From positions 1 through 62,639 of IMG/VR virus record IMGVR_UViG_3300006638_000002: a stretch of DNA of 62,639 nt; one strand, given 5' to 3'. The translations under genes were made by a program, and so were the position numbers. Below, one piece after another: positions 1,749 through 32,991 of the stretch. This stretch comes from a virus. Taxonomy: Duplodnaviria; Caudoviricetes. Under the pieces are notes generated by a model, which was not told where the DNA came from, did not search any database, and worked only from the letters and a program-made list of their open reading frames with translations. Within the stretch, counting starts at the first letter, position 1; the number at the start of each line of letters is the position of its first letter.

Positions 1749-1903
1749 AGAAACTTTTTGTTACTCTCGGTTTATTGGCAGCCGTCTTGATCTGCGGTGG
1801 ATGGAATGTTCATGGCATACCGTCGCCATCGACTAGTTTCATGTTGGTAAACACCGGCTCATTTATGCTGGTGAATACCGGATCAAAATTGAAGGTGAAA
1901 TAA
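1745..1903 (+). CDS. 52-aa signal-peptide micro-protein with tandem SFMLVNTG repeat
   Basis: ATGA overlap upstream, TAATG overlap downstream; MKKLFVTLGLLAAVLICGG N-terminus. Confidence 0.65.
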   Translation: MKKLFVTLGLLAAVLICGGWNVHGIPSPSTSFMLVNTGSFMLVNTGSKLKVK

Positions 1904-3438
1904 TGCTCCGGTTCATGGTCGGATTGATCTTGCTTGGTCTTATATCGCAGGCCAATGCCGCAGACTCCACTATCGATGCTCTCGGTGCCGGTTCTGCGTT
2001 AACTGGCGCAGAGTCAGTTCCAATGTTTCAGTCCGCTAACCCTGCTGTCAAAACAACGACCAGAGCGATAGGAAATTTGGCCCCTGGAAACGGGACGGCT
2101 TACATCGACGCTACGCAGCAGTCCGGCGCGGATATGTGCGCCAAGATCGCGGCGGCACAAACCGCACTTATATCAGCGTCACCATTTGGGGGTGTTGTTG
2201 ATGCGCGTGGTTTTCTTGGCGTGCAGCCGTGTGCCGGTTCCATGTTTCTTGCTACCGGGAATGTTGCCGTAACAATTCTTCTTGGTGCCACTTCAATTCA
2301 AACGGCTGTACCTCAAAATCCTCCAACGCTGACTGCGCTGGTTGGCTCTATGCCATTCTCCATTAACGCTCCACTAATAGCGCAAGCCACTGGCACAGTC
2401 ATTCAGCCCGCAAATTCCAACTCTTTTGTAGTTACTAAAACGACCAGCGGATCGACCGCAAGCGGGGCCGTATTGCCGTTTACCGACACATCTGGAATTG
2501 TGGTCGGTGATTCCGTGACCGGAACGAATATAGTCGTACATACCACTGTTCAGTCCATTGTGACTAATACCAGCGTGACAGTGGGAGAGGCAATTTCCGG
2601 GACAGTGGGAAGTGGTGCAACGATCACTTTCACGCATCCAATCATGTCGATGGGCGCTGGTGCCGTTTCTACTGCCGTACAAATTTCCAACCTGAAAGTT
2701 TCGTGCCAGCAGCCTAACGCGAGTTATCTATCTGGCGGAATTGGCATTCAGAATGATTGGGCGCAGCAGCAGAGTTTTCTTTTCAACGTGGTTATCAGCG
2801 GATGCTTTACTAACTTCGATATAGAAACAACGAATGCTCAAAACGGCGGTCCTTACAACTATGTGACAATGGCGGCAGGTTATGCGTCCGTCAACGAAAC
2901 GTGCATGAAGATAGGAAATAATAATGGCAGCAACACAGTTCTCGAATCTGCGTTTCACGGCCTTTCCTGCGGCGGCGCAGGAGTAGGTTTTGAACCTACT
3001 GTCGGAATTTATCAGGATGCGTATTCATTGGGCATCTATGATTCCAATGTGGAAAATGTAGTTACAGGCATCGAGGTAGGACGATACAACTTCGTTCACG
3101 GTCTATTGCTATCGAATATAAATTGTGGTGGGCAGGCCCAAGCAATGACCACCTGTGTCGATATTTCTTCAAACAATTCCGTGGATGCCGCGACACTCAC
3201 GAACATTACCGGATACAGTGGGGACGGCGTTACTAACAGGCTTGTCGATCATATCAATTCAAGAACTATAACGACCCCGTGGGTCGCCTACTATATACTC
3301 GCGCACGACGGGTCGATCATAGCCGATGGTGCCACTAACCTTTTTACGACGCTTGGAACAACGGCGGGTGTTACTTGTGCGAGTGGCGTAACAGCCGCAA
3401 CTGTTACGGTATTGAAAGGCATTGTGACGCATTGCTAG
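1903..3438 (+). CDS. Exported tailspike-like (probable beta-helix) protein with Sec signal peptide
   Basis: MLRFMVGLILLGLISQANA|ADS; GADMCAKIAAAQ..GGVVDARG cap typical of beta-helix tailspikes; Asn/Gly-rich; 10 Cys. Confidence 0.75.
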   Translation: MLRFMVGLILLGLISQANAADSTIDALGAGSALTGAESVPMFQSANPAVKTTTRAIGNLAPGNGTAYIDATQQSGADMCAKIAAAQTALISASPFGGVVDARGFLGVQPCAGSMFLATGNVAVTILLGATSIQTAVPQNPPTLTALVGSMPFSINAPLIAQATGTVIQPANSNSFVVTKTTSGSTASGAVLPFTDTSGIVVGDSVTGTNIVVHTTVQSIVTNTSVTVGEAISGTVGSGATITFTHPIMSMGAGAVSTAVQISNLKVSCQQPNASYLSGGIGIQNDWAQQQSFLFNVVISGCFTNFDIETTNAQNGGPYNYVTMAAGYASVNETCMKIGNNNGSNTVLESAFHGLSCGGAGVGFEPTVGIYQDAYSLGIYDSNVENVVTGIEVGRYNFVHGLLLSNINCGGQAQAMTTCVDISSNNSVDAATLTNITGYSGDGVTNRLVDHINSRTITTPWVAYYILAHDGSIIADGATNLFTTLGTTAGVTCASGVTAATVTVLKGIVTHC

Positions 3439-11913: not shown

Positions 11914-11936
11914 TTCGGGTTTGAAGGCAATGACCG

Positions 11937-12620: not shown

Positions 12621-12630
12621 CGGGTGCATA

Positions 12631-14367
12631 ATGGCAAAGCGCCCGACCATCCCAATCCCTGATTTCTCGCCTGATCTTTCCGACATCGGAACTGGCATCT
12701 CTCAGAATATCACCGGGGTCATTCCGCAGGCAGACGGCTATGGACCGTTCAAATCGCTTGTAGAGTTTACCACTGCATTGCCTGACAATTGCCGCGGGCA
12801 TTTCTTCGCGCGCAATCCAGATGGCTCCATTTCGGTATTCGCCGCGACTGCGACCGATCTTTATCTATTGAACAATACCGCATTCACATGGACGAAAGTC
12901 TCTAAAGGTGGCGGCTATTCGCAATTGCCGACGACTGACAACTGGCAGTTTGCCCAATTCAATCAGACGATCATTGCGGTGCAGATCAATACGGTGCCGC
13001 AGGCTTTCCTATTGGGATCGTCGAGCGTGTTTGCCGATCTAGGTGGTTCTCCACCGCAGGCAGGATTCGTAGCGGTCGTTAATTTCTTCCTCGTGCTCAC
13101 GGGCCTGATTTCAAACCCGAACCGGATTCAATGGTCTGATCTGGATGCTATTACGACTTGGACGGCTGGCGTTGGACAGTCGGATTTCCAAGACTTGCCG
13201 GATGGCGGCAATTGCAATGGTCTATCCGGTGGCGATGCTTATGGGGTGATTTTTCAGGATGAATCAATCCGAAGTTTGATCTATTCGCCTGGTTCCGGCG
13301 TTGTGTTTTCTATCATCCGGATATCGACGCAGGATTCATTATTCGCCAAATACACGGTTATCAATGCGGGACAGAATACGTTTTTCCTTTCCGCGCAGGG
13401 CTTCAAATATATCCCACCGGGAGGCGTCCCGACACCAATCGGCAAAGAGCGGGTGGATCGGTGGTTCTTTGCCCATGTGGACAGGTCAAATCTGCAGCTA
13501 GTGATCGGCGCCACCGATCCGAGCGCAACCCGTGTCTATTGGGCGTTCAAATCGACGGCTGGGGAAGGCGGGTTGTTTGACCAACTCCTTTGCTATGACT
13601 GGTCGATCGGGCAGAACGGGAAATGGAGCCTTATCCCGTGCAGCGGCCAATATCTTGCCGCATTGGCAAAGCCGGGGCTCACGCTGCATCAACTGGATGC
13701 GTTGGCTCCCGGCGCACTGGCGGTAACTGGCGCAGCCGATAATGGCGCAGGTCTAATTCGGTTAGCGTTAAACCAGGAATCAAACGCCTATTTCACCATC
13801 GTCGGGCAGAACTTTATCGTTGTGCAGAATGTCGAAGGTACAGTCGAGGCAAACGGTCGCTGGTCGTTTAATATCATCGATTCAACCCATATCGATCTGC
13901 TCAAGGACGAGGACGGCAATCCCTCGGCATTCGTTCATGCCTATACAAGTGGAGGTGCGATCGGCGGCTCGCTGGATGCGTTGCCATTTTCTCTCGATAG
14001 CTTCTCGCAAGCAGCAGCAGCGCGGCTTTCGGCTGTGTCGCCCAATGCTGCGGTTGGTTTCTTCGACGGCTCCAATATGGAAGCCATCATGGAAACGGAT
14101 GAGCAGGATTTGGAAGGCGATCTAGTCTTTATCGACGGCGTGCGCCCGATCACCGATGCATCAACGGCAATGATTTCGATCGGCGGACGTCTCAATGCGC
14201 AGGCTGCTGTCACCTATAGCGCGGAGTCGGCGCTCTCGGAGAATGGGGATTGCCCGCAGTTGGTAGAGACGCGATATGCGCGCGCCAAGCTGCGGATTCC
14301 GGCAGCCTCGGTGTGGACATATGCCCGTGCGGTTCAACCTAGCGCGCAGCCAGCGGGTGATACGTGA
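12631..14367 (+). CDS. Tail nozzle / DNA stabilization protein (P22 gp10-like)
   Basis: WQFAQF, RIQWS, SDFQDLPDGG, PIGKERVDRWF beta-propeller-type motifs; position. Confidence 0.75.
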   Translation: MAKRPTIPIPDFSPDLSDIGTGISQNITGVIPQADGYGPFKSLVEFTTALPDNCRGHFFARNPDGSISVFAATATDLYLLNNTAFTWTKVSKGGGYSQLPTTDNWQFAQFNQTIIAVQINTVPQAFLLGSSSVFADLGGSPPQAGFVAVVNFFLVLTGLISNPNRIQWSDLDAITTWTAGVGQSDFQDLPDGGNCNGLSGGDAYGVIFQDESIRSLIYSPGSGVVFSIIRISTQDSLFAKYTVINAGQNTFFLSAQGFKYIPPGGVPTPIGKERVDRWFFAHVDRSNLQLVIGATDPSATRVYWAFKSTAGEGGLFDQLLCYDWSIGQNGKWSLIPCSGQYLAALAKPGLTLHQLDALAPGALAVTGAADNGAGLIRLALNQESNAYFTIVGQNFIVVQNVEGTVEANGRWSFNIIDSTHIDLLKDEDGNPSAFVHAYTSGGAIGGSLDALPFSLDSFSQAAAARLSAVSPNAAVGFFDGSNMEAIMETDEQDLEGDLVFIDGVRPITDASTAMISIGGRLNAQAAVTYSAESALSENGDCPQLVETRYARAKLRIPAASVWTYARAVQPSAQPAGDT

Positions 14368-15797
14368 CAACTGGCACACAGATTGGCGTTCCTCTTAGTC
14401 CCGCCGAAACTAATACTTTCCGTATTGTCGCGGCGATCAGGGCGCTACAAAATCCAGCGAGCGCGCCGGTATTACAAACCACAATTTTCAATGTCTATCC
14501 CTCTGGTGGAGACGACACGGCCAAAATTCAAGCAGCAATCAACTCGGCCTCTGCGGCTGGACGTGGAACGGTGTTTCTACAGCCAGGGCTCTACAAAACA
14601 TCATCAGTTATAACACTTGCCGCTAATGTCGATGTGATTGGAGCAAGTCGTGACTCTGTTTTGATATTCCCGCAGACAAACTCACAGAAAGTCTTTTCTC
14701 TAATCTATAGCGTTCTGACCTATACAAATGTGGTTCTCTCTGATTTTACGATCTACACCGGAGCAACTACGGGCGTAGTTGGCATTGCGCAGACACTTAC
14801 GAGAAACGTCGCATTTCGTAATCTAGTTTTTCAGGGCACTGGTGCCGGGTCAATCGTTTTAGATCGAGTTCAGGCATTTTTAATGTCCGACATTCTGGTT
14901 GAAGGAAATCCCGGCCAGGGCGCAGGGGGCATCAAACTGTGGAGTTCAGACGATAGCAACTACGGCTCTTATGGCAGCATTACCAACTTGATTGGAGTCA
15001 ATATCGGTAACGGATTTCAGACTCCGTTTCTATACCTTCGCCGCATGGTTGGGGTGATGTGTACCAACATCAGTGCCAATGATCTTGTCATTGGCGGAAC
15101 GCCGCAGGATGGCATCATTATTGAAAACGACAGCCAAGGCAATTCATTCAGTAACATCTTGATTGGTGCGTCAAGCGTTGGTGTTCGGGTTCAGCAGGGG
15201 GCAGGCATAGTTGCATCTCCGACTTTTAATGTATTTTCAAACTTGGGAATAGATCAGCCTCATACGGCGTCAATTCTACATTCTTCCGGCGAATGGAATA
15301 GTTTTGATGGTGGGGCACTTACATCCTCAGGTGCTGTTACGACGATTACGGCCGTACAACTTACTGGCGGGTCTTCTTTACGAATTAACAATTTCACGGT
15401 CGTCGGGTTCAACGGAGTTGGGGGGCAAGCTATAGCTATTGGTGCAGGCGTCGGCAATTCCATCATTAGTGAAAATATCGTGAATGGCAACACTACCACC
15501 ATTACGGATAGCGGTACGACAAATACTGTAATTGACAATCTAGGCTACAACCCTGTCGGAGCCTCTGGGCCGACTACGGTTGGAACATCGCCTGCAACAA
15601 TTACGAATGGCGCTTCACCGGCCACTTACTATTTCCTGCAAAGCGCAACCAATACAGCAACTGTTGCCCAGGGGGGGCACACGCTGGGGACACTCAGCAG
15701 CACCACACTGCCGCTTACGGTCGATCTTGGGCCGAATGAAAGCGTGGTTGTGACTTGGATAACTACAGCGCCAACTTACACAGTTTCGGTTCATTAA
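14364..15797 (+). CDS. Tailspike, pectate-lyase-like beta-helix (no signal peptide)
   Basis: GDDTAKIQAAINSA...GTVFLQPGLY motif; only one Cys seen. Confidence 0.8.
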   Translation: MTTGTQIGVPLSPAETNTFRIVAAIRALQNPASAPVLQTTIFNVYPSGGDDTAKIQAAINSASAAGRGTVFLQPGLYKTSSVITLAANVDVIGASRDSVLIFPQTNSQKVFSLIYSVLTYTNVVLSDFTIYTGATTGVVGIAQTLTRNVAFRNLVFQGTGAGSIVLDRVQAFLMSDILVEGNPGQGAGGIKLWSSDDSNYGSYGSITNLIGVNIGNGFQTPFLYLRRMVGVMCTNISANDLVIGGTPQDGIIIENDSQGNSFSNILIGASSVGVRVQQGAGIVASPTFNVFSNLGIDQPHTASILHSSGEWNSFDGGALTSSGAVTTITAVQLTGGSSLRINNFTVVGFNGVGGQAIAIGAGVGNSIISENIVNGNTTTITDSGTTNTVIDNLGYNPVGASGPTTVGTSPATITNGASPATYYFLQSATNTATVAQGGHTLGTLSSTTLPLTVDLGPNESVVVTWITTAPTYTVSVH

Positions 15798-22274: not shown

Positions 22275-22425
22275 CGTCAAGCCATCGAGCGATGGCGACA
22301 ACTCCCACTAACAGCGCACCGGCGATCGTGGTTCCGATCAAGCCGATGAAGGCAGGAATGATGTAAAGGCGCAGTGCGACCATTATTCCGATGAAGGTCG
22401 CGACCATCGCAATCCGCAGGAGCAT
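22234..22425 (-). CDS. Antisense small membrane protein
   Basis: Fills the 155-bp gap in the late operon; two hydrophobic helices; start uncertain. Confidence 0.45.
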   Translation of the reverse strand: MLLRIAMVATFIGIMVALRLYIIPAFIGLIGTTIAGALLVGVVAIARWLDVRDRRPAPERRPE

Positions 22426-22429
22426 CGGT

Positions 22430-23185
22430 ATGGCTGACAGTTCTGTGGACATTCCCGCGATCATCCGTGAAAAAGCGGCGGCTTACGGCGTTGATCCAGA
22501 CACGCTTTTGCAAACGGCTAAAGTAGAAAGCAACCTCGACCCCACTAACGCTAATCCCGCGTCCTCTGCGAGGGGGTTATTCCAGCAAACCACCGGAAAC
22601 TGGAAGCAATATGGGAACGGCGGCGATCCGCTCGATCCAGTCGCTAGTGCTGATGCTGGCGCTCGGTTCATGGCGGCGAATCAGAAGCTACTCACGGCAT
22701 CCGGTATTCAGCCGACGCCTGGTGCGCTCTATCTGAGTCATTTCGCCGGGCCCGGGGGGGCGCTGAAGGTTCTCAAATCCGATCCGACTGCATCAGCGGC
22801 TGATATTCTCGGTCCCGCGGTGGTCAAGGCCAATCCATTCCTCGCCAATATGTCGGCAGGTGATTTGCAGTCATGGGCTGATCGCAAGATGAGCGGTTCG
22901 GCACCTGCTGGTGCGCCTGCTACCGCCGCGCCGACTCAAATGGCGTCCGCTGCTCCGGTCGCTGGCGGTGCTGCGCCTGACACATCGGCGGCTGCACCGA
23001 CCGAGCCAGCAATCAATCCAGACCTGATGGCGCAGTTGTCAGCCGTTCCTAAAATGCTGGCGCAATCGCAGCCGGATGTTTCGCAGCAGGCACCTCCACC
23101 GATGGCACCGATGTTCGATCCATCAGCACTCGCTCGCGCCCGCATACTGTCTCGTGTTATAGCTGGGCAGCCGATTACGGGATAG
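22430..23185 (+). CDS. Lytic transglycosylase (SLT-like), probably virion-associated
   Basis: AKVES..DP...NP.SSARGLFQ, LYLSHFAGPGGA motifs; AGGAG SD. Confidence 0.85.
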   Translation: MADSSVDIPAIIREKAAAYGVDPDTLLQTAKVESNLDPTNANPASSARGLFQQTTGNWKQYGNGGDPLDPVASADAGARFMAANQKLLTASGIQPTPGALYLSHFAGPGGALKVLKSDPTASAADILGPAVVKANPFLANMSAGDLQSWADRKMSGSAPAGAPATAAPTQMASAAPVAGGAAPDTSAAAPTEPAINPDLMAQLSAVPKMLAQSQPDVSQQAPPPMAPMFDPSALARARILSRVIAGQPITG

Positions 23186-23195: not shown

Positions 23196-24266
23196 ATGCT
23201 ACGTTCTCGACCTTGGTTGATGATTATCGCACTGCTCGCTCTGGCTATCCCAGCGCAAGCCGCGATGTGGCAGTGGTCCAAGACGCCATCCTCGAATGCT
23301 ACTGCGGATCCCAGCGTGAACTGGTCGATCGGCATGGCCCCGAGTGCAGTGGATGCATCGGGGCGTGCCATGATGGCCCGCACTGCGGAAAATCGCGACG
23401 ACATTTCGGGCCTGCTTTCTGCTGGTGGTACTGCGACTGCCTATACCGTCACGACTAATCAAGGCCTTCCCGCTACTCCGAATGACGGGCAACTGCTTGG
23501 ATTCACCCCGACCAATACGAATGGGGCTGGCGTTACTCTGTCGGCGGACAGCGGCGGTGTTTTTCCAATTCAAAGTTCGGCTGGTACGGGAATTTCCAGC
23601 GGTTCTTTGGTATCCGGCACGCCATATACGGTGAAGTTCTCGGCTTCGGCTTCTGCATGGGTCGTGCGGAATTTCTTCGGCAGCCCATTCACAGTGCCGA
23701 TCGGCGCGATGCTGCCTTATACCGGGACGACTTCGCCAAATTCCAATTTCATATTTCCTGCAGGCCAGTGCATCTCGCGCACGACTTATGCTGCCTATTT
23801 CGTGCAGGTTAGCACGACATATGGTGCTTGCGATGGCAGCACGACTTTCGGCGTTCCAGACATGCGCGGTCGCACGATCGCTGCGATTGATAACCTTGGC
23901 GGCACGGCGGCCAATCGACTAACGACAACTTATTTTGGCTCTGATCCGACTGTGGTTGGCGATGCTGGTGGTTCGCAAAGTCATACGTTGACGCAATCGG
24001 AGTTGAGCGTTTCGCTAGGCACCGCGACAAGCACCGTTACCGATCCTGGCCACTCGCACGTTGAAACCGCCGCTCCTGGTTCAGGAGGATTAAGTGGCGT
24101 TGCAGTGCAAAGTGGTGCATCAGCGCAGGCTGCTACGAATTACACAACGCTGGCCGGCACGACAGGGATTAGCGTTGCAACTACTATTACGAACGCTGGT
24201 GGTGGAAATCCTCACGCCATTGTGCCGCCGATGATCGTGCTCTCCTACATACTTCGGGTGCTCTGA
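23196..24266 (+). CDS. Tail fibre with tail-collar domain and Sec signal peptide
   Basis: MLRSRPWLMIIALLALAIPAQA|AMWQW; VPIGAMLPY..GQCISRTTY..YGACDGSTTFGVPDMRGR..GG.QSHTLT..H.H..H..VPP collar/tip motifs. Confidence 0.85.
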   Translation: MLRSRPWLMIIALLALAIPAQAAMWQWSKTPSSNATADPSVNWSIGMAPSAVDASGRAMMARTAENRDDISGLLSAGGTATAYTVTTNQGLPATPNDGQLLGFTPTNTNGAGVTLSADSGGVFPIQSSAGTGISSGSLVSGTPYTVKFSASASAWVVRNFFGSPFTVPIGAMLPYTGTTSPNSNFIFPAGQCISRTTYAAYFVQVSTTYGACDGSTTFGVPDMRGRTIAAIDNLGGTAANRLTTTYFGSDPTVVGDAGGSQSHTLTQSELSVSLGTATSTVTDPGHSHVETAAPGSGGLSGVAVQSGASAQAATNYTTLAGTTGISVATTITNAGGGNPHAIVPPMIVLSYILRVL

Positions 24267-24700
24267 TGACCGTCCTCCGCACCAATCTTCACAATACCCG
24301 TGATTCTGCGCGGCAGATTCGGTTCGAGCCGACAGCGGGAATCACGGCGACAAATGTCCAGAAAGCCGTTGAACAAGGCGGCGGGGGTGGAGGTGGTGGC
24401 GGTCCAGTTGTTCCAACGAATATCTCCTTTTCAAACTCGCCATATACGGTGCTGTCGACCGATACTTTCCTCGCCGTCGATACGGCTGGCGGCGCAGTGG
24501 TTATTGATCTGGTAGCGGCTGCGTCTCGTTCGCTTCCCATAACCATCAAAGACATGACCGGACATGCAAACACTAATCCAATGAGCATCGTTCCGAATGG
24601 TGCAGAGACTATCGATGGCCTAAGCCCCTATTCGGTTGGCTCCGATTTTGGTGGCGTCCAACTCATTCCGCAGACTGGCGGCTATATGGTTGCCCCATGA
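24266..24700 (+). CDS. Tail fibre-associated protein (no signal peptide, no Cys)
   Basis: I.F.P..GITATNVQ.A motif, Gly9 linker, IKD..G.A.TN...I...G.ETIDG domain. Confidence 0.75.
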   Translation: MTVLRTNLHNTRDSARQIRFEPTAGITATNVQKAVEQGGGGGGGGGPVVPTNISFSNSPYTVLSTDTFLAVDTAGGAVVIDLVAAASRSLPITIKDMTGHANTNPMSIVPNGAETIDGLSPYSVGSDFGGVQLIPQTGGYMVAP

Positions 24701-26610
24701 AGATTATCTTACGAATCCTTATCGCCTTTGGCCTTCTGCTCGGACAGGCCTACGCGCAACAGGGCGCGCAGTTGCCGGCAGGTACTGCGTTTGGCAATGC
24801 GGGATCATTGAGAGCGCCTGCTGTTCCTGTACCGTTTTCGACGATTGTCTCGATGGGAGGCGGCGGTGGAGGAGGTGGCGGCTCGTCGACAATAAATCGG
24901 CAGGATTTCTGTTTAGTCGGAATTACGGGCTGCCTTTATACATTTAGCTCCGGCGCGACATCGGTAACTCTGGCCACGACGCCAGCCAGCACGAATTCCG
25001 TCACTGTCTCGTTTAACGGGGTGACCCAAGCCGGAAACACTTGGTCGCTTTCCGGCAGCACGATAACATTCGCCGCTGCTGTACCATCTGATGTGAAGGT
25101 GATCGATGTCACGTCTCTGTCGGCCAGCATCTCGAGCGGCACGGTCACGAGCGTTGGCCTATCCGATGCTTCGGCTACACCGATCTACGCAATTACCAAT
25201 AGCCCAGTCACAAACTCTGGAAGCCTTACATTAACACTGACTACTAAAAGTCCGAACGTGGTGTTTGCTGGGCCATCGAGCGGAGGGGCGAATCAGCCAA
25301 GCTTTCGCTCTTTAGTTGGCGCTGATTTGCCTTTACCAGCCGCGGCCACATTGGGCGGCATTAAGAGCATTACGTCAGTCGCGTCTAACTGGATTTCAGA
25401 CATTGGAACAGACGGCACGCCGCATCAATCACAGCCGACATATACCGATCTTGCTGCTGGTGCGCCGACATCAACGGCGTCCGTCCTCGGGCTCGTAAAA
25501 CCTGATGCGACGACAATCACGATTTCTAGCGGAATATTGACCGCCGCTACGGCTACATCGTCGACATTGGGTGTTGTGAAGCCGGACAATTCGACAATTA
25601 CAATCTCGGCTGGCGTGATTAGCGCAGTGGGATCATCGCTCACGGTCGGATCCACAATTACCGGCTCATGCACGTCTGGCTATGTTGTCTATAGCAATTC
25701 CGGTGTTGTCGGCTGCGAATTGCTGGCTGGTGGCGGCAATGTCAGCAACTCTGGAACACCTACGATTGGACAGCTTGCAATCTGGACCAACGCGACGACC
25801 GTACAGGGTTTGACCGCGCTACCGGCCGCAAACTTTCCAGCCCTTACTGGCGATGTGACAACTGCTGGCGCCTCGCTCGCAACGACCGTTGCTAAGATCG
25901 ACGGATTCGCCATGTCGATCGGTGGGACGGTTACGACTGCGGGAAATGTTACCTTTGCAGGGGCATATCCATTCACCGGCACACTGACGGCCAGCACTAG
26001 CGTTACGTTCCCGACATCAGGGACACTGGTCAATTCCGGTGTGGCAACACTTAGCTCGCTAACCTCGGTTGGGGCGCTGGCGTCTGGATCGCTTACGACC
26101 GGCTTTACCGTCGTGCCTGCTGCAATAGGCGGCACTGGCGTTAACAACGGTAGCAATACGCTGACGCTTGGCGGCTCCATGACGACAACTGGCGCAGCAA
26201 CACCGACGTTTGCCTTCGGCTCAGGATCATGGACTTACACCTTTGCTGCGAGTGCAAATGATTCGGTCGCTCTGCTAGGCAAAGTCAGCCAAGCCTTCTC
26301 AGGTGGCGTTCACTTGACCTCGTATAATATCGGCACAGTGTCGAGCGGAACAACGACTATCGATTGCGGTAATGGTCCGAGCCAATATCTAACCAATGGT
26401 GGAGCATTCACGTTCGCAGCACCTAGCAGCGATAGCCAATGCCTTGTCATTGTTACGAACAACGGTAGCGCAGGAGCTATTACATTTTCTGGCTTTACGG
26501 CAGAGGCCAGTCACGGTGACGCTCTTGATACGACGAATGCCCATAAATTCACGGTGAGCGTATGGCGTGGTAATTCTACCGCCGACTACCGCGTGGTGGC
26601 GATGCAATGA
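24697..26610 (+). CDS. Tail fibre-like protein with Sec signal peptide
   Basis: MKIILRILIAFGLLLGQAYA|QQ; Gly9 linker; LG.VKPD..TITI..G repeats; PSFRSLV.ADLP; 6 Cys in three close pairs. Confidence 0.8.
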   Translation: MKIILRILIAFGLLLGQAYAQQGAQLPAGTAFGNAGSLRAPAVPVPFSTIVSMGGGGGGGGGSSTINRQDFCLVGITGCLYTFSSGATSVTLATTPASTNSVTVSFNGVTQAGNTWSLSGSTITFAAAVPSDVKVIDVTSLSASISSGTVTSVGLSDASATPIYAITNSPVTNSGSLTLTLTTKSPNVVFAGPSSGGANQPSFRSLVGADLPLPAAATLGGIKSITSVASNWISDIGTDGTPHQSQPTYTDLAAGAPTSTASVLGLVKPDATTITISSGILTAATATSSTLGVVKPDNSTITISAGVISAVGSSLTVGSTITGSCTSGYVVYSNSGVVGCELLAGGGNVSNSGTPTIGQLAIWTNATTVQGLTALPAANFPALTGDVTTAGASLATTVAKIDGFAMSIGGTVTTAGNVTFAGAYPFTGTLTASTSVTFPTSGTLVNSGVATLSSLTSVGALASGSLTTGFTVVPAAIGGTGVNNGSNTLTLGGSMTTTGAATPTFAFGSGSWTYTFAASANDSVALLGKVSQAFSGGVHLTSYNIGTVSSGTTTIDCGNGPSQYLTNGGAFTFAAPSSDSQCLVIVTNNGSAGAITFSGFTAEASHGDALDTTNAHKFTVSVWRGNSTADYRVVAMQ

Positions 26611-27386
26611 TGAAAAAGATTTTTGCATTTCTGATCTGTCTAGTGGCATTTACGTCGCCAGCGTGGGCGAGTATTACTTTCACTGCTGCGGGAACGCAGT
26701 CCAGCACATCGTCGAACACTCTTACATTAAATAGTTCGTCTACAAGTCCAGCAAGCATTCCGGCTGGCTCGGTCATCATATTATCCGTCACCGACTTATC
26801 TGGCAGCGGGACGCTTAGTTCCGTCGCAGACAACGCCGGAAACGTTTACTCGCTTGCCACGTCTAAAGCGCTGAATGGCTCATCCGCGACCGGAACAGGA
26901 TTTGTTTATATTAGCTACACCGGAAATGCGCTGAATCTTACAGCGAGCGGAACAATTACTTATACTCTTAATTTTTCTTCTGGCCCGCGTTCTGCTGTTG
27001 CCAGCGTCTCGTATGCAAGCGGAACGCTGCTAAGTTCGTCCGTATTAGACGCTACCGTTACGGCGACGGCGAGTGGGAACAGCGGGACCATTACGGTTGG
27101 CTCTGGCATCCCGGCAGTAGCTAATGAACTTCTGATCTGTGTATTCTCAAACAATAATGCTTCGACCTTTACGCAGGATAGCGGCAACGGTTGGGCTGCA
27201 CCGCCGACGAGAGCTATACAAGGAAGTTCTTCTCAGATCGCAGGCGGGAGTCAAGTAGCGAGCGCTGCTAAGACCTGCGTGCCGACATTGGGCACGAAAG
27301 GTTCGTGGGCCATTCAGACTATTGGGCTCAAGCCAGCAGTAACGATTGCTACGCCGTTTATCTTTCTTCCGGCTATCGTGCCATGA
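26607..27386 (+). CDS. Exported beta-rich protein with Sec signal peptide
   Basis: MMKKIFAFLICLVAFTSPAWA|SIT; SVADNAGNVY motif; two mature Cys. Confidence 0.8.
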   Translation: MMKKIFAFLICLVAFTSPAWASITFTAAGTQSSTSSNTLTLNSSSTSPASIPAGSVIILSVTDLSGSGTLSSVADNAGNVYSLATSKALNGSSATGTGFVYISYTGNALNLTASGTITYTLNFSSGPRSAVASVSYASGTLLSSSVLDATVTATASGNSGTITVGSGIPAVANELLICVFSNNNASTFTQDSGNGWAAPPTRAIQGSSSQIAGGSQVASAAKTCVPTLGTKGSWAIQTIGLKPAVTIATPFIFLPAIVP

Positions 27387-28297
27387 GGATTCATATGCTC
27401 AGATTAGCAAAACTCACGGTGGCATTTTTGGCTCTGACTGGCATTGCTTTCGCGGCTCCGCCGACCACGACAACGGTGCCTAGCCAATTGCTGACGATGC
27501 CGCTGGATAGCATCCTCACGACGATGACGCCGACTACTGCTGGCGCCGGATTTAATCTTCCGCAGGGGGTGGCTCCAACGGTGCCGAATAATGGCGACGT
27601 TTGGACAACGAGTGCTGGTTTGTTTTTTAGAATTGCTGGCGTGACTGTCGGCCCGATCGGTGCAAGCGGAATAACGATCAACGCGACTCCGGTCACGGGG
27701 GCGACGGCTGGACAAGTTTTATTTAGCGATGGTTCTAAATTGCAGGCCTATTCGATCACGGGAACGGCTGGCAATGCTGTGATGTCAAATGCGCCGACGA
27801 TTGCTTCGCCAATATTCACTGGCACTGTTGCTGGCAACGCGACGATTCCTTTGTCAATACTAGTGCAGGGCACTGCCAATTCTATGATCGGCAACTGGTC
27901 GAACAGCACCGGGTATTTCCAAGCCAATACGATGCCGCCATGTCCTGATACGGGCGGCCATCTCAATTATGTTTCAGGGGCCGGTATTACCTGTGGAACT
28001 GGCGGTAGCTTTGGCGGTCGTGTTATCACTGCGGCAGGTGCGGTCACAATCACAACTTCCGATGATGTGGTAATCATCAAGAAATCATCGCCTGCGACGA
28101 CAACGGTAAACCTGCCATCTAGCCCGGTTAACTGGCAGAAAATCAGGATCAAGGACGGGTCGTGCAACTCAGGAACCTTTGCCATTACGATCACACCGGC
28201 GGCTGGCAATATCGATAATGCATCGACCTACGTCCTCAACCGCAACTGCCAATCGGTCACGCTGACCTATGACGGCGCTCAATGGGACACGCTGTAA
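27383..28297 (+). CDS. Tail fibre-like protein with Sec signal peptide (start 27383 or 27395)
   Basis: MLRLAKLTVAFLALTGIAFA|APP; APT.P.NGDVW motif; C-terminal IKD.....ID..W domain; 4 Cys. Confidence 0.8.
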   Translation: MRIHMLRLAKLTVAFLALTGIAFAAPPTTTTVPSQLLTMPLDSILTTMTPTTAGAGFNLPQGVAPTVPNNGDVWTTSAGLFFRIAGVTVGPIGASGITINATPVTGATAGQVLFSDGSKLQAYSITGTAGNAVMSNAPTIASPIFTGTVAGNATIPLSILVQGTANSMIGNWSNSTGYFQANTMPPCPDTGGHLNYVSGAGITCGTGGSFGGRVITAAGAVTITTSDDVVIIKKSSPATTTVNLPSSPVNWQKIRIKDGSCNSGTFAITITPAAGNIDNASTYVLNRNCQSVTLTYDGAQWDTL

Positions 28298-29562
28298 TGA
28301 CCAACCTGATTAAGCCGGACAAGAAACTGATCTCGTCCAGACGCAAATTTATCGCTGGCGCTGCCGCGGTGCTGGCAATGCCTGCGGTGTTTCGATCAGA
28401 TGAGGCGCGGGCGTCTTTCGTGCCGGGCCCCTACGAACTATGGATCGATCAACTCGGCGCCAAGGGCGACGGCAGCACGGATGACACCACGGCGTTTAGT
28501 CGCATTGCTGGCTATCTGCCGAATGGCGGCACGGTTCGCCTGTCCAATGGCAAGAATTATCTATCGTCGTCAGGATTCACTATTCCTGAAGGTGTGACGC
28601 TTGCGGGACCGTATGGCCAGATCGGAATGAACGGTCTGACCGCAACGCATCTCGCCAACTTCCGCAGCATTACGCTGGGCTCTGGTGCGACCATCACCAT
28701 GAATCAATCATCCACGCTAACGGGGTGTGCAATTCTTCCGCAGGGAATGACGTTCCCGCAGTCGAGTCCTTCTGCATGGACAGGCACTGCGGTTACAATC
28801 GCACAGAGCAATGCTTGTGTTGAAAATTCAATGATTGCTGGCTTCGGTCTTGGTATTCATTCGGAAGGCACGGTTTCTGTTGGCGTAGACCGGACATATG
28901 TTCGGCATTGCCAGATGGATAATGTTGCTGGGATTCAAGCGGGATATTGTTTTGATGTCTCACGCTTTGAGGACATTCATTGCTGGCCGTTCTTGACCTA
29001 TAACTCAGGAACTCTCACACGCACCGGAACGGCCTATTTAGTAGACAATCCGAATGATTGGGGCGAGTTCAACTATTGTTTCGCGTATGGCTACGATAAA
29101 GGTTTCAGCAATTCGGGGGCAAGCTCTCTCACTTATAACTTATGTGGCGCGGATACGTGCGCGACCTATGGATTTGTCCATTCCGGCACTCCAAGCGCCG
29201 ACGTAAGCTACATCGGATGCAATGCGGGCGGATGTGGGAATGGCATCTACATTTCTAGTCAGTATGCCGGTGATGCGATAGCAACTATCTCCGCCTGTCG
29301 CTTTTGGTCAAATACCAACGGAATAGCCGTTGATGCATCAAACCTTATCCCAATCACTGTGACAGGCGGTTCGAATCGCGATAATACCGCATGGGGAATT
29401 AATTGCGCTTCTAGCCATACTGGTTCCAAGATGACAGTGACCGGCGCTGTGTTCCAAGGCAATTCGAGCGGTGCCGCTGCCACATTAGCCACTGGCGTTT
29501 TGACCTCATGCGTACTTAGCGGTGAGACTGTCACCGGCTTTACGCAGTCGAACAATATCTAA
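28297..29562 (+). CDS. Pectate-lyase-like beta-helix tailspike with twin-arginine (Tat) signal
   Basis: SSRRKFIAGAAAVLAMPAVFRSDEARA|S then LGAKGDGSTDDTTAF...GGTV...GKNY. Confidence 0.8.
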   Translation: MTNLIKPDKKLISSRRKFIAGAAAVLAMPAVFRSDEARASFVPGPYELWIDQLGAKGDGSTDDTTAFSRIAGYLPNGGTVRLSNGKNYLSSSGFTIPEGVTLAGPYGQIGMNGLTATHLANFRSITLGSGATITMNQSSTLTGCAILPQGMTFPQSSPSAWTGTAVTIAQSNACVENSMIAGFGLGIHSEGTVSVGVDRTYVRHCQMDNVAGIQAGYCFDVSRFEDIHCWPFLTYNSGTLTRTGTAYLVDNPNDWGEFNYCFAYGYDKGFSNSGASSLTYNLCGADTCATYGFVHSGTPSADVSYIGCNAGGCGNGIYISSQYAGDAIATISACRFWSNTNGIAVDASNLIPITVTGGSNRDNTAWGINCASSHTGSKMTVTGAVFQGNSSGAAATLATGVLTSCVLSGETVTGFTQSNNI

Positions 29563-30089
29563 TGCAGGATAATCTTTCTAAGGCGCTCGACTTCATCACC
29601 ACTGACGAAGGTGAGGAATTGAATGTCAGCCCTGACGAACCGGGTGGCGCTTCCAAATGGGGAGTGACGCTCACCGATCTATCTGAAGTTCGCGGTAAGG
29701 TCTGCACGGTAGCCGATGTCGCTGCTCTCACGCAGGATGATGCGAGCCAGATATACGGCACGAGATTCGCTGTCCCTATTCATTTTGATGAATTGCCTGG
29801 CGGTGTCGATTATCGAATGCTCGATTGCGCCGTGACGCTCGGTGTCACGGGCTCCATCCAAGCCTTGCAGATGTGTCTCGCCATATGGCCGACGACAGGG
29901 ACCATGGATGCCATTACACTGGCGGCTGTGAAGGCTGCGACTCCATCGGTTCTCGTGCTGCAACTTGATGCCGCGTGGTTAACATGGAAACGCGGCCTGA
30001 CTCCGACTGGATTTTCCAAGTACGGTCATGGCTGGACGAATCGAATCCTCAAAGTTAGGAGCCGCATAGCGGCAATGGTGACGTCATGA
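29562..30089 (+). CDS. Endolysin, glycoside hydrolase family 108-like
   Basis: EG......DEPGGASKWGVT; LPGGVDY...D.AV..G; YGHGWTNRI. Confidence 0.85.
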   Translation: MQDNLSKALDFITTDEGEELNVSPDEPGGASKWGVTLTDLSEVRGKVCTVADVAALTQDDASQIYGTRFAVPIHFDELPGGVDYRMLDCAVTLGVTGSIQALQMCLAIWPTTGTMDAITLAAVKAATPSVLVLQLDAAWLTWKRGLTPTGFSKYGHGWTNRILKVRSRIAAMVTS

Positions 30090-30862
30090 GTTTCGCTGCG
30101 ATGGTCGCTTCAGACGGCCCACTGCAACTCGGTGTGCGAGATGGTCCGGACGTTCGCGCGCTGCAAGTGGCACTATCGAATGCGGGCTATCGCGTTGACA
30201 TCAATTCCGGCACATTCACGGCTGATACTGAATACTGGCTACGGCAATTCCAGAAACAGCACGGCCTCAATATCGATGGCATACTAGGACCAACTGCGGC
30301 GGCGGCGCTAGATGCCCCATCGTCGGTTCTCATACAGACAGCAACTCCGCTGGTCGGGCCTACCGGCTTCCCGCATGACGACTCCGCATCGCTGATTGCG
30401 TTCTATGGCGATCCGAGCGTGAACAACACGGCATGGCAAGAAGCGAACCTAGTCCCGGTCGTTCCGCCCTATCAGATGTTCGGAGGCGACAACGACGATG
30501 GAACATCTCCGGTCAAGAACATCTATTTTCATAAACTGTGCGCGCCGAACCTGTTGGCGGCCCTAACCGATATCTGGAATTACTACGGCAAGGACGACGC
30601 CAAAATCCATGCGATCGGGATGCATCGTTTCAGCGGTGCCTATAACTACAGGCCGATCCGCGGCAGCACGCGATTATCGGATCACTCATTTGGATGCGCC
30701 ATTGATTTGGACTCTCAAGACAATCCGATGACAACGGACTTTAGTATTCCCTACAAAATGCCACAGGCATGTGCTGATATCTTTAAGTCACATGGTGCAT
30801 TTTGGGGTGGAGATTTCAAACACAGAAAAGATTATATGCACTATCAGTGGAGCCAGGAATAG
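30086..30862 (+). CDS. Endolysin: peptidoglycan-binding domain + M15 metallopeptidase
   Basis: L.LG..GPDVRALQ..L...FQ..HGL..DGI.GP; R..RG...LSDHSFGCAIDL; DYMHYQ. Confidence 0.85.
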   Translation: MSFAAMVASDGPLQLGVRDGPDVRALQVALSNAGYRVDINSGTFTADTEYWLRQFQKQHGLNIDGILGPTAAAALDAPSSVLIQTATPLVGPTGFPHDDSASLIAFYGDPSVNNTAWQEANLVPVVPPYQMFGGDNDDGTSPVKNIYFHKLCAPNLLAALTDIWNYYGKDDAKIHAIGMHRFSGAYNYRPIRGSTRLSDHSFGCAIDLDSQDNPMTTDFSIPYKMPQACADIFKSHGAFWGGDFKHRKDYMHYQWSQE

Positions 30863-30919: not shown

Positions 30920-31537
30920 ATGAAGTCGGCAAAGCTTTTACTAGCGGCCTTTCTGATTATTGCCCCGCTTTCGGTGTGCGCTCAGACGCCTCCGATTACC
31001 CTTACCCCAACGAACGTGACTACAACGACTCTTCCAGCAACGGGTCCTGCGGCTACTGCTGCACCTGCGGTCACGCAGAACACTGTTTCAACGACGGGCC
31101 CGGTTGAAAGCAAAACCACCATTAGCGTCGGTACATTGGCCGGCGAAGTCCTACAATGGCTCGCGGCTGCGTTTAGCGTTCCGATCGGCGGTTTGCTCAC
31201 GGCATGGCTCTATCGCCTATTTAAACTTGCTGGGGTGAATGTTGCGGATGGTCTGCGGACAAAATTGCAGGAGATCATCATCAACGGCTTGAACGCCGGT
31301 GCCAAGAATACGGCCGACCAGATGCAGGGCAGAGGCCAAGTCGAGATCAAGAATGCAGTGGTGGCTCAGGCCGTAGTTTATGCGCAGGCCCATGCCGCCG
31401 AAACGCTTAAGCAACTTGGGCTCGATCCGCAGAGCGGCGCCGCGGTGGAAGCAATCAAGGCTCGCATTGAAACCGCCATCAATGATCCGTCTGCTCCTAC
31501 GCCGCCAGTTCTAGACGGCCATCCAAAGGCTGCATGA
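30920..31537 (+). CDS. Holin-like membrane protein with N-terminal signal peptide
   Basis: MKSAKLLLAAFLIIAPLSVCA|Q, Thr/Pro linker, one TM, helical C-domain (AVVYAQ..A.E.LK.LG) resembling LL-H-type holins. Confidence 0.55.
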   Translation: MKSAKLLLAAFLIIAPLSVCAQTPPITLTPTNVTTTTLPATGPAATAAPAVTQNTVSTTGPVESKTTISVGTLAGEVLQWLAAAFSVPIGGLLTAWLYRLFKLAGVNVADGLRTKLQEIIINGLNAGAKNTADQMQGRGQVEIKNAVVAQAVVYAQAHAAETLKQLGLDPQSGAAVEAIKARIETAINDPSAPTPPVLDGHPKAA

Positions 31538-31538: not shown

Positions 31539-32306
31539 ATGAATTACAAAACTGGAAAACTACCGGCGCGGCCTGATGCTGTCGGTTTTAAGTTCGGCGC
31601 ATTTTTTAATGCTGAAAAGTTGCCGACGCCACCTGCCAAGTTCGGTCATTACGGGCTCGGCATAGGTCTTAATTTTGGAATGCTCGCAAATGACCAATAC
31701 GCAAATTGTGTATTCGCTGGTGCTGCTCACGAGCACATGATCTGGACCCATCGATCGGGAACCGGCCAGCCTGTCGCATTCAACGATGCGTGCGTACTGG
31801 CAGATTATGGCGCGGTGACAGGATTTGATCCGTCCAAGCCCGCCAGCGATCAGGGCACCGATATGGTTTATGCGGCATCCTACCGCCGCACGGTTGGCGT
31901 TGCCGATGCTCGTGGGGATCGTCATAAGATTGATTCCTACGTGGCGCTGCGTCCTGGTGATGCGGACCAACTCGCATTGGCGACCTATCTGACGGGCGCC
32001 ACGGCGGTCGGGATCCAATTTCCCGATAGCGCGGAGAATCAATTCGACAAGAGCGAACCGTGGGACGTTGTGCCTAATGCTAAGATAAATGGTGGCCACT
32101 ACGTCCCCTGTGTGGGACGTAACAGCGATGGCAATCTGCTTATCGTCACCTGGGGCCGTTTGCACGCGATGACGCCGAAGTTTTATCAGACCTACTGCGA
32201 TGAGGCGCTGGCGTATGTCTCCGTTGATCTAATGAAGGACGATCTCTCTCCGGATGGGTTTAATTCTGTTCAACTCAGTCGAGACTTAGCTGCACTCGCA
32301 AACTGA
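31539..32306 (+). CDS. Papain-like cysteine peptidase
   Basis: NDQYANCVFAGAAH (Cys), GGHYVPCVG (His), IVTWG. Confidence 0.75.
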   Translation: MNYKTGKLPARPDAVGFKFGAFFNAEKLPTPPAKFGHYGLGIGLNFGMLANDQYANCVFAGAAHEHMIWTHRSGTGQPVAFNDACVLADYGAVTGFDPSKPASDQGTDMVYAASYRRTVGVADARGDRHKIDSYVALRPGDADQLALATYLTGATAVGIQFPDSAENQFDKSEPWDVVPNAKINGGHYVPCVGRNSDGNLLIVTWGRLHAMTPKFYQTYCDEALAYVSVDLMKDDLSPDGFNSVQLSRDLAALAN

Positions 32307-32679: not shown

Positions 32680-32991
32680 ATGAAGAATTTTCTACGAGTT
32701 CTTCCGATTGTCGGCACGTTGCTGGTCGGTGGTTGCGGTGTGACCAACCCGTTTACCGGCGTTCCAGTCACGGCGGCTGATGTTCAGGCTGCTGCGGTCG
32801 CCGCTTGCGGCTTCCTGCCTACGGCTTCGACCGTTGCCAACATCATCGCTGCAGGAAATCCAGCAGTGGCTACGGTGTCAACTATCGCCGCGGCCATTTG
32901 CTCGGCTGTGGTCGGCGCGAAGGGTCGCAGGCTTGGTGGCGCTGTGCCGAACGTGAACGGCGTTCCTGTTCATGGGCGCTTCGTCCAGTAA
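32680..32991 (+). CDS. Lipoprotein (possible spanin-type)
   Basis: MKNFLRVLPIVGTLLVGG|C lipobox; in lysis region. Confidence 0.7.
   Translation: MKNFLRVLPIVGTLLVGGCGVTNPFTGVPVTAADVQAAAVAACGFLPTASTVANIIAAGNPAVATVSTIAAAICSAVVGAKGRRLGGAVPNVNGVPVHGRFVQ

Follow-up and report, generated by a model that had tools for sequence, protein, structure and literature searches.

Are the fibres of a tailed phage always built in the cytoplasm, or can they be exported and folded elsewhere before they meet the particle? In textbook tailed phages, synthesis and assembly of all virion parts take place in the cytoplasm, and this holds for P22 gp9, the Sf6 tailspike, T4 gp10 and gp12 and the CBA120 tailspikes. Podovirus fibres and tailspikes (P22 gp9, Sf6) hold the particle through an N-terminal part, and branched sets are joined by T4 gp10-like domains. 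The window, that is the whole stretch of 62,639 nucleotides analysed here, is a complete soil phage of the podovirus type, whose host is probably an alphaproteobacterium. Its tail-fibre position is occupied by six consecutive ORFs (genes A to F, 23196 to 29562), which lie after the ejection and lytic-transglycosylase genes in a translationally coupled late operon running into the endolysins. Five of them (A, C, D, E and F) carry predicted N-terminal export signals and gene B carries none. A full-text literature search found no paper describing export signals on tailed-phage fibre proteins.

Sec signals were called with our own heuristic scanner of n-, h- and c-regions, not with a trained predictor (SignalP, TatP), as a positive n-region followed by 8-17 uncharged hydrophobic residues (the h-region), with small residues at positions -3 and -1. 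Applied to the translations, it predicted cleavage (slash) at MLRSRPWLMIIALLALAIPAQA/AMWQW in gene A (23196), MKIILRILIAFGLLLGQAYA/QQ in gene C (24697), MMKKIFAFLICLVAFTSPAWA/SI in gene D (26607) and M(RIHM)LRLAKLTVAFLALTGIAFA/AP in gene E, which qualifies from either start, 27383 or 27395. Scores were 5.8-6.6 for these four genes and for a fifth at 1903. Gene F (28297) has a predicted Tat signal, ..SSRRKFIAGAAAVLAMPAVFRSDEARA/SF. Its N-terminus (SSRRKFIAGAAAVLAMPAVF..EARA/S) combines the motif SRRKFI, judged against S/T-R-R-x-F-L-K, with a moderately hydrophobic h-region and an AxA site; an NCBIfam scan at E <= 1 returned no Tat-signal model for it, HMMER filters easily losing such short models. 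The scanner flagged 138 of 3300 shuffled N-termini (4.2% false positives) and 9 of the 66 window ORFs, a count that leaves out F and the second start of E. Signals in five of six adjacent genes are far beyond chance. A preliminary description of this DNA had placed export signals at 23196, 24697, 26607, 27383/27395 and 28297 (Tat) and had taken the last four starts (with 27383 for E) to be set by overlaps. All six ORFs exist, the signals are canonical by scanner or motif, and the overlaps are borne out, TGATG, ATGA or TAATG linking B, C, D, E, F and two endolysin genes. The start at 23196 is set by a ribosome-binding site (GGATAGGA, 8 nt upstream).

All features described here are on the plus strand. 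Gene A (23196..24266, 356 aa; signal residues 1-22, nt 23196-23261) encodes a tail-collar fibre, as indicated by tail PHROGs, a Collar domain (PF07484, E 5.9e-12; 45.8 bits against a Pfam cut-off of 24) and PDB matches to the long tail fibre 8kec (E 8e-14) and T4 gp12; mature A starts AMWQWSKT. Gene B (24266..24700, 144 aa) encodes a putative mini-fibre or adaptor, in which an adaptor-like N-terminal segment and a poly-Gly linker precede a C-terminal T4 gp10-like beta-sandwich; it has a baseplate PHROG and a weak PF07880 match (E 1e-3), and its PDB matches (T4 gp10 and N-terminal fragments of tailspikes) are weak and not significant (E 0.05-0.7). Gene C (24697..26610, 637 aa; signal residues 1-20, nt 24697-24756) is a fibre gene by phrog_27494 and by tblastn matches in phiRSL1 and Motura, to tail fibre and minor tail proteins; the mature product begins QQGAQLPAG..GN..RAP and contains a poly-Gly linker and two LG.VKPD..TITI repeats. 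Gene D (26607..27386, 259 aa; signal residues 1-21, nt 26607-26669) is modelled (pLDDT 88.9) as a single beta-sandwich that lacks a docking segment. The model has 75 BFVD matches at E <= 1e-3, actinophage minor tail proteins among them, and no match in the PDB search. Gene E (27383..28297, 304 aa; signal residues 1-24, nt 27383-27454), assigned as a fibre from its relatives and a weak PF25692 match, has a FNLPQG..NGDVWTT motif and a C-terminal beta-sandwich.

Gene F (28297..29562, 421 aa, 13 Cys; signal residues 1-39, nt 28297-28413) carries GAKGDGSTDDT, the third of the fibre hallmarks that had been listed for this locus; those in A (Collar) and C (the twofold repeat) were likewise recovered. 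Its model (pLDDT 74.8, from a shallow alignment of 6 rows) shows the right-handed beta-helix of a tailspike body, glycanase or tailspike-like, with 78 PDB matches at E <= 1e-3 that include the Sf6, HK620, CBA120 and Det7 spikes as well as AlgE4, GH87 and RbmB. Gene position, the Collar in A, the beta-helix in F (matching Sf6, HK620 and CBA120) and C-type genes with a conserved N-terminal module on swapped distal bodies are all as in podovirus fibres and tailspikes, and the weak gp10-like domain of B, predicted to hold the N-terminus of C, recalls T4 gp10-type sets. Unlike podovirus fibres, however, five of these six genes have Sec or Tat signals, the Sec ones with paired cysteines. Unlike podovirus tailspikes, mature F lacks an N-terminal particle-binding domain in the model, the chain starting at residue 40 and the helix at about residue 47.

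Genes A to F are syntenic across 10 kin phages. In three families (A, D and E), signal-bearing and signal-less members have one mature N-terminus in common. Among the 120 best relatives of A, 100 have a signal directly upstream of A-x-W-Q-W-S-K-T, a share inflated because the query contained the signal, and of the 20 without one, most begin M-A-x-W-Q-W-S-K-T; a scan of IMG/VR with mature motifs found 65 of 75 distinct homologues without a signal and about nine with one. Cultured relatives have signal-less fibres that are orthologous to gene A and in synteny with it. Signal-less orthologues from Bradyrhizobium phage ppBeUSDA76-2, from Microcystis phage Mae-JY35 and from a UViG begin 3-4 residues upstream of the invariant W27. 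Across the 10 kin loci, A has a signal in seven and none in three, with unchanged neighbours. Gene B is conserved and signal-less in all nine loci where it was read (its only blast match being in L117), and the gene directly after B is signal-bearing in 10 of 10. Most of these loci conserve the mature N-terminal domain of the C-type gene, with variable bodies behind it. The D family numbers 380 relatives; among the 150 listed, 34 have a signal and most of those without one begin at the mature end of D, typically MAISVTNIGT. Of 107 E relatives, 34 are signal-bearing. The E protein of P0008 (88% identical) keeps the hydrophobicity of the signal but not its sequence. The Tat signal of F is near-identical in P0002 (72% identical) and is replaced by fibre-type N-termini in P0003 and P0005.

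Cysteine content follows the same division. Even numbers in the four Sec-type mature chains (A 2, C 6, D 2, E 4), with none in B and one in gene 14364, had been noted beforehand, and these counts stand; the product of gene 1903 has 10. The proposed survey of homologues for co-occurrence of signal and cysteine pairs gave the expected outcome in the A, D and E families. In the E family, clustered at 40% identity, signal-bearing proteins comprise 4 with no cysteine, 28 with an even and none with an odd number, compared with 29, 22 and 20 of the signal-less ones (p = 4.8e-6), and cysteine density is 3.3-fold higher in the former. The corresponding counts (none/even/odd) are 9/19/3 against 9/27/37 for D (p = 3.9e-4) and 2/92/6 against 9/4/7 for A (p = 1.5e-5). 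A covarying cysteine pair occurs in 21 of 46 signal-bearing E-type domains and in 2 of 100 signal-less ones, so that even counts and covarying pairs, the marks of a disulfide protein, are both tied to the signal. On these sequence comparisons, export and disulfide formation are well supported, because a common mature N-terminus is reached by both routes and cysteine parity and density go with the signal. Because most of these fibre-type proteins carry secretion signals and paired cysteines, they very probably fold in the periplasm rather than in the cytoplasm.

A model of three B chains with three copies of C residues 21-62 gave ipSAE values of 0.87, 0.87 and 0.86 (best of three controls, 0.00), with a partner pLDDT of 86 and contacts agreeing at least 97% between runs. 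Of 80 solved complexes in the calibration of the tool, 58 reached the mark, as did 2 of 110 mismatched pairs; our inputs (own shallow alignments of 9 and 10 rows, 3+3 copies) differ from those of that calibration. The first residues of mature C are thereby predicted to dock on signal-less B, contacts being placed between C 21-27 and 39-44 and B 96-144. The model may echo solved gp10-type attachment complexes.

The best explanation, to which we give a probability of about 0.5, is that most of the fibre-type proteins are exported by Sec or Tat, oxidised in the periplasm and docked at lysis, F and possibly D perhaps remaining free. A fuller scheme, to which we lean a little less than evenly, divides assembly between two compartments: head, tail and B in the cytoplasm, and most fibres exported, trimmed and locked by disulfides, signal removal making the docking N-terminus and relatives switching routes. 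A, C, D, E and the gene 1903 product would cross the inner membrane through Sec, and F through Tat, before the cell lyses. The Sec substrates would lose their signals and then fold and form disulfides in the periplasm, a strongly supported step. The cytoplasmic particle would be built from signal-less parts, namely the nozzle, B and perhaps the spike 14364. Breach of the inner membrane by the holin would mix the two compartments, and the exported fibres, we infer, would use the mature N-termini uncovered by signal removal to dock, A on the tail in the manner of its signal-less orthologues and C on the gp10-like C-terminal domain of B. Attachment would have to wait for the holin, because signal removal creates the docking N-terminus. 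F, and possibly D, may instead act as free periplasmic or released proteins that cut or bind glycans, and close relatives would move single fibres between routes by gaining or losing a signal. The preliminary description had proposed export, oxidation and joining at or after lysis. The first two are upheld in three families; the joining is plausible and indirectly supported by the orthology of A to signal-less fibres, the late-operon coupling, the B-C model and Cellulophaga phage phi18:3. That phage (NC_021794, Pachyviridae) is, like ours, a podovirus, here a cultured one, with signal-bearing genes directly upstream of the lysis genes: gp085, gp086 and gp087 are adjacent, have canonical Sec signals and are annotated in the record from virion MS/MS as structural or tail proteins, and no signal is present on the nine further MS-annotated proteins among the record entries covered. 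The MS detection could reflect co-purifying material. Unlike the window phage, phi18:3 has a Bacteroidota host and its three proteins have 0, 1 and 3 cysteines, without pairing; no sequence relation between them and the window genes was found.

A less probable but serious alternative is that the exported proteins never enter the virion and act as free late fibre-fold proteins, periplasmic or released, that cut, mask or bind surface glycans or receptors, and so block superinfection, keep progeny off debris or aid release; Llp of phage T5 and WceF of Pantoea act comparably. This reading accounts for export and oxidation just as well, D is a lone beta-sandwich without a docking segment, and signal-less candidates for receptor binding by the virion exist in gene 14364 and in the kin genome G001. 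Yet signal-less A orthologues cannot act in the periplasm, and A has its mature N-terminus and gene position in common with them; a constant N-terminal domain with variable bodies fits an anchored fibre, not a free enzyme; the complex model places exported C on cytoplasmic B; and the signal-bearing proteins of phi18:3 are annotated from virion MS. For F the case differs. Pantoea stewartii WceF has a Tat signal and a trimeric tailspike-like right-handed beta-helix that cuts exopolysaccharide (PMC7949094), and mature F, likewise a bare glycanase- or tailspike-type beta-helix behind a Tat signal, may be such a free glycanase. The depolymerase named earlier as an alternative would suit F, which lacks an N-terminal docking domain, better than virion joining. 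WceF is absent among the listed PDB matches of the F model and is a chromosomal protein of 736 aa from an EPS synthesis cluster (PMC7949094), whereas F has 421 aa and is coupled to endolysins in a phage late operon.

It is unlikely that genes A to F are lysogenic-conversion (moron) genes for surface or periplasmic proteins serving a lysogen, for instance adhesins like the mosaic adhesive trimer fibre proteins of Bdellovibrio (PMC10769870). The tail-fibre region is a known moron site, bacterial contigs (among them a 489-kb MAG contig and a prophage of a Bradyrhizobium isolate) encode signal-bearing fibre-like proteins too, and the phage may be temperate, given the resolvase-type recombinase and the ERF/YqaJ recombination genes in the window. 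The Bdellovibrio proteins are reportedly modular, phage-fibre-like and exported by a Gram-negative cell; unlike the window genes, theirs belong to a bacterial predator, serve the cell surface and lie in no phage late operon. Against the marks of a moron (own promoter or terminator, deviant composition, patchy presence), a promoter and terminator search at A to F found no excess, their GC of 0.53-0.59 lies within the 0.515-0.59 of neighbouring late-operon genes, synteny is kept in the kin phages, and stop/start overlaps join every gene from A through the endolysins. It is very improbable that the hydrophobic N-termini are not working signals, with translation starting downstream or with cytoplasmic proteins assembled in the textbook way. 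The in-frame Met24 of gene A is the exact start position of its signal-less orthologues, and the calls are heuristic, with no Tat-model match for F. However, Met24 has no ribosome-binding site like that upstream of 23196, C, D, E and F start on overlap codons, the D translation holds no later Met, and close relatives keep the hydrophobicity of signal regions despite sequence drift. Cysteine parity tracks the signal in three families, a pattern for which a non-functional N-terminal extension cannot account.

It appears that, in a large group of uncultured soil phages, receptor-binding proteins take the Sec or Tat route and are oxidised in the periplasm. If so, tailed-phage assembly would have an extracytoplasmic branch so far unrecognised, host export and Dsb systems would be host factors for infectivity, fibre-less particles and periplasmic fibres would make up a natural in-vivo complementation step, and pipelines that equate a signal peptide with "not structural" would mislabel the proteins that are the most host-specific. 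Phage engineering would be affected too, because such fibres may require oxidative folding. The window offers testable handles in close relatives whose orthologous fibres either have or lack a signal, in a Tat-routed beta-helix protein and in the predicted docking of the signal-processed N-terminus of C on signal-less B. Phage proteins that pass through host Sec before lysis are familiar as such (Llp, Cor, Lom and Bor), as are secretory and SAR endolysins; these act in lysis or exclusion, and none is a fibre-type protein with a virion-docking module. In the endolysin P1 Lyz, a periplasmic disulfide matters (PMC3556154).

Two further fibre-like genes lie outside the block. Gene 1903 (1903..3438, 511 aa) has the scanner-called signal MLRFMVGLILLGLISQANA/ADSTID, and shares 55% identity over its first 67 residues with the signal-bearing fibre of L040. 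Gene 14364 (14364..15797, 477 aa), tailspike-like by tail-spike PHROGs and without a signal, has no homologue in five kin genomes at least 91% complete and is a possible receptor-binding protein assembled in the cytoplasm. The particle could infect without the exported set, because of this spike and of signal-less proteins of 756 and 942 aa encoded by G001. Downstream of F, and coupled to it by TAATG and ATGA overlaps, two endolysin genes of PHROG lysis families (29562..30862) encode a GH108-type enzyme and a PG-binding plus M15-type enzyme. Finally, two 25-nt poly-Gly-coding direct repeats (24376-24400 and 24858-24882, 88% identical) flank the C-terminal domain of B together with the signal and docking N-terminus of C.

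Genes A to F are six adjacent genes at the tail-fibre position, preceded by the transglycosylase gene (22391-23185) and followed by the endolysins (29562-30862). The preliminary description reported export signals on all of these genes except B, an assignment that holds both in the translations and with our own n/h/c-region scanner, whose false-positive rate on shuffled N-termini is 4.2% and which flags 9 of the 66 ORFs of the window, including the 511-aa gene 1903 and an M15-like peptidase at 35162. Predicted cleavage follows MLRSRPWLMIIALLALAIPAQA and precedes an alanine in A (start at 23196), and falls at LLLGQAYA/Q in C (24697), FTSPAWA/S in D (26607) and LTGIAFA/A in E (27383); F (28297) begins with a predicted twin-arginine signal, SSRRKFIAGAAAVLAMPAVFRSDEARA/S, and B (24266) has no signal. 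The starts of C, D, E and F, described earlier as set by stop/start overlaps, are borne out by TGATG, ATGA or TAATG overlaps, which chain B, C, D, E, F and two endolysin genes, while GGATAGGA lies 8 nt 5' of the gene A start and no such site is found at the in-frame Met24. Neither promoter-like sites (11 versus 12.9 expected) nor terminator-like sites (19 versus 18.8 expected) were in excess. Together with the overlaps, this places A to F in a single late operon, translationally coupled and continuing into the lysis genes.

The cysteine counts given in the preliminary description were correct, with 2, 6, 2 and 4 residues in A, C, D and E, none in B and one in gene 14364, a signal-less tailspike-like gene of the window, and its proposed co-occurrence of signal and cysteine pairs was recovered among homologues, since even cysteine numbers track the signal in the families of A, D and E. 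In the E family, where 34 of 107 relatives have a signal, clusters at 40% global identity with none, an even or an odd number of cysteines numbered 4, 28 and 0 for signal-bearing proteins and 29, 22 and 20 for signal-less ones (Fisher p = 4.8e-6), with densities of 1.33 versus 0.40 cysteines per 100 residues. A covarying cysteine pair in the C-terminal sandwich of E-type domains was present in 21 of 46 signal-bearing versus 2 of 100 signal-less domains, one of the latter two having its start wrongly called, ahead of an internal signal. The corresponding numbers for D-family representatives (50% identity, 330 aa or less) were 9, 19 and 3 against 9, 27 and 37 (p = 3.9e-4), and for the A family 2, 92 and 6 against 9, 4 and 7 (p = 1.5e-5). 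F, expected to fold before its export by Tat, contains 13 cysteines, an odd number.

Signal-bearing and signal-less forms share their mature ends. Using the first 115 residues of A as query, a signal directly upstream of A-x-W-Q-W-S-K-T was found in 100 of the best 120 relatives, a proportion inflated by the signal within the query, and most of the remaining 20 begin with M-A-x-W-Q-W-S-K-T, so that signal cleavage or removal of Met would leave identical mature ends. Of 75 distinct A-type homologues yielded by an IMG/VR scan on mature motifs, about 9 were signal-bearing; 65 lacked a signal, and most of these came from phages of about 42-45 kb. Similarly, 34 of the 150 listed relatives of D carry a signal (one of them Tat), and most of the others start with MAISVTNIGT or a near variant, which is the predicted mature end of D. 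In a tree built from 103 D-family proteins, the signal label required 24 changes, compared with 26.6 after shuffling (69 of 500 shuffles gave as few); good support was limited to 8 of 100 branches, which force at least 3 label changes, a resolution too low for counting gains and losses.

The bodies of these proteins were compared with known folds. Gene A encodes a Collar domain, with matches to T4 gp12 and to a long tail fibre of solved structure. B has a weak, non-significant likeness to the N-terminal domain of T4 gp9/gp10 and to tailspike N-terminal fragments, and C matches a virion-protein PHROG and tail-fibre/minor tail genes of two jumbo phages. The D model is a beta-sandwich (pLDDT 88.9) with no fold match in the PDB at E <= 1e-3; predicted viral structures gave 75 matches, many of which were minor tail proteins of actinophages. 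In its model, F is disordered over residues 1-44 and forms a right-handed beta-helix that starts near residue 47; it matches the Sf6, HK620, CBA120 and Det7 tailspikes as well as alginate epimerases, a GH87 glucanase and the RbmB lyase. Neither Pfam nor NCBIfam had a match for C, D or gene 1903, and D also falls in no PHROG family; on ten long D-family fusions Pfam gave a single unrelated domain. Searching phages by tblastn gave no match for D and short local matches only for E and C, and a search for related loci with C alone found no relative. Gene 1903 (1903-3438), situated between the likely terminase (60302-61861) and portal genes, carries a signal and 10 cysteines, and its post-signal N-terminus is fibre-like, with 55% identity over 67 residues to a fibre start in the IMG/VR contig L040.

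Tandem signal-bearing fibre-like genes lie right downstream of ejection genes in L040 (five genes) and in the IMG/VR contigs L016 (about seven), L072 (four), L017, L011 and L025, and similar genes occur in alphaproteobacterial MAG contigs and in a Bradyrhizobium isolate prophage. In L094, a 489-kb Alphaproteobacteria MAG contig, a gene with the Tat-type start MMGPSRRRFLAGFAAGGVALAAARSATA (10833-11771) adjoins Sec-type signal-bearing fibre-like genes, so the predicted mixture of Sec and Tat signals in one array recurs outside the window. Ten loci related to the window (kin loci) share 27-96% identity over matched structural genes. The order A, B, C-type is kept in nine of them, the B gene being not resolved in L117; A has a signal in seven, B never has one and contains 0-1 cysteine, and the gene behind B has a signal in all ten. 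A rule by which either all fibres of a phage or none would carry signals was ruled out, as the three loci with signal-less A (L104, L105 and L110) pair it with a signal-bearing C-type gene. The complete kin genome G001 likewise rules out that kin fibres are all signal-bearing, as it has signal-less proteins of 756 and 942 aa; the latter occupies the same terminase-to-portal interval as gene 1903. In the Microcystis phage Mae-JY35, a cultured relative, the last fibre-region gene (11591-12823; 410 aa, 4 cysteines) has the start MVLFILAFLLSASPASAAMTCD, which is hydrophobic and signal-like and has no charged n-region.

Several observations bear on whether the products reach the virion. Gene A occupies the position of a signal-less collar fibre in Mae-JY35 and in the Bradyrhizobium phage ppBeUSDA76-2; identity to these two and to a third signal-less orthologue from a UViG is 32-48%, the N-terminal domain being well kept. 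An orthologue that lacks the signal cannot work in the periplasm, which makes a single fibre function, reached by two routes, the simplest reading. Most C-type genes of the kin loci encode bodies of 378-1120 aa behind a shared mature N-terminal domain of some 70 residues; of this domain, C of the window has just the first 22 or so residues. Such a conserved module on swapped bodies is the hallmark of anchored receptor-binding proteins. A complex model of three B chains and three C(21-62) chains, the N-terminal piece of mature C, passed with ipSAE values of 0.87, 0.87 and 0.86 (0.00 for the best of 3 controls), the score being a model confidence from our own shallow alignments and a multi-copy input, unlike the calibration of the tool (where 58 of 80 solved complexes, and 2 of 110 mismatched pairs, cleared the threshold), and one that may echo solved gp10-type attachments. 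The partner pLDDT was 86, contacts agreed between runs in at least 97%, and residues 21-27 of C, the first seven past the predicted cleavage site, contact residues 96-144 of B. Mature C is thus predicted to dock on B, and since B is signal-less the two chains could meet only once the inner membrane had opened. In the RefSeq record of the cultured Cellulophaga phage phi18:3, experimental MS/MS proteomics is given as the basis for annotating gp085, gp086 and gp087 as structural or tail components, although this could reflect co-purifying material; each starts with a canonical signal, and the nine other MS-annotated proteins within positions 30,000-71,443 of the record have none.

Taken together, we give a probability of about one half to the following mechanism as a whole. 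The proteins would be exported by Sec, or by Tat for F, their signals would be cleaved and the chains would fold oxidatively in the periplasm; once the holin lets the compartments mix, A would dock on the tail and C on B, and F, perhaps with D, may act as a free glycan-active protein. Comparative evidence supports the first three steps, and we infer the last two. The link between cysteines and signal would be left unexplained if the N-terminal extensions had no function; we therefore consider non-functional signals highly improbable and take export and periplasmic disulfide formation as well supported and very probable. Expression as lysogenic-conversion proteins also appears unlikely, for A to F are coupled to late structural and lysis genes, with no excess of promoters or terminators, and do not look like morons, which counts for a virion role.

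It is possible, if doubtful, that the proteins are exported and never join the virion. Mature F has no docking segment and so resembles WceF of Pantoea, described as a Tat-exported, tailspike-like EPS glycosidase (PMC7949094), and D is a bare beta-sandwich, which counts against a virion role. Particles might moreover infect without the exported set, given the signal-less spike of gene 14364 and the two signal-less proteins of G001; this spike is absent from five kin genomes. Against this reading stand the signal-less A orthologues at the same position, the conserved module on swapped bodies, the predicted docking of C on B and the phi18:3 annotation, which favour export followed by docking at lysis.

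A full-text literature search, with subscription journals outside its coverage, found no paper on signal-bearing tailed-phage fibres. The window contributes a Tat-routed member, fibre orthologues with and without signal in close kin, cysteine-parity statistics for three families and the predicted docking of a signal-processed N-terminus (C) on a signal-less neighbour (B). Two 25-nt poly-Gly-coding direct repeats (24376-24400 and 24858-24882; 88% identical, starts 482 nt apart) bracket the C-terminal domain of B, the signal of C and its docking N-terminus, and recombination between them would join the signal-less N-terminus of B to the body of C; no such joint was found in contigs of three sequencing runs, which cannot reveal rare forms. 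Contigs from two runs, which may be where the window came from, match it identically.

The window is the entire record, a single contig of 62,639 bp, and the same DNA is contained in contigs of soil-metagenome runs; a DNA search of GenBank phages with the A to F region gave no match. Podophages of Microcystis, Paracoccus and Rhizobium have portals with 37-40% identity to that of the window, which also encodes an HK97-type major head protein, ejection-type proteins and a lytic transglycosylase. Also encoded, within 39473-40123, 45700-47174, 49389-49982, 52759-53262 and 53596-54990, are a small resolvase/invertase-type serine recombinase, the recombination genes ERF and YqaJ, an MT-A70 methyltransferase, a GcrA-like regulator and a fusion of ParB-N with a DNA methylase. 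The GcrA-like regulator suggests that the host is an alphaproteobacterium. The M15-like peptidase (35162-35848; 228 aa) has a canonical signal, MRPRLLLLAIASTIAISAPAQA/R, 8 cysteines and a weak M15_4 match (E 0.0045), and G001 has a signal-bearing homologue with 33% identity. Downstream of the lysis genes, a 255-aa protein of phrog_19005 with no assigned function (31539-32306) is conserved behind the signal-bearing array of L016 and in kin loci, and its C..H spacing, judged by eye, looks like that of a papain-type protease. The 205-aa product of 30920-31537, with a signal-like N-terminus and a second hydrophobic stretch by eye, may be a holin or part of a spanin, and the 103-aa product of 32680-32991, with a lipobox-like LVGGC, is a candidate outer-membrane spanin or exclusion lipoprotein.
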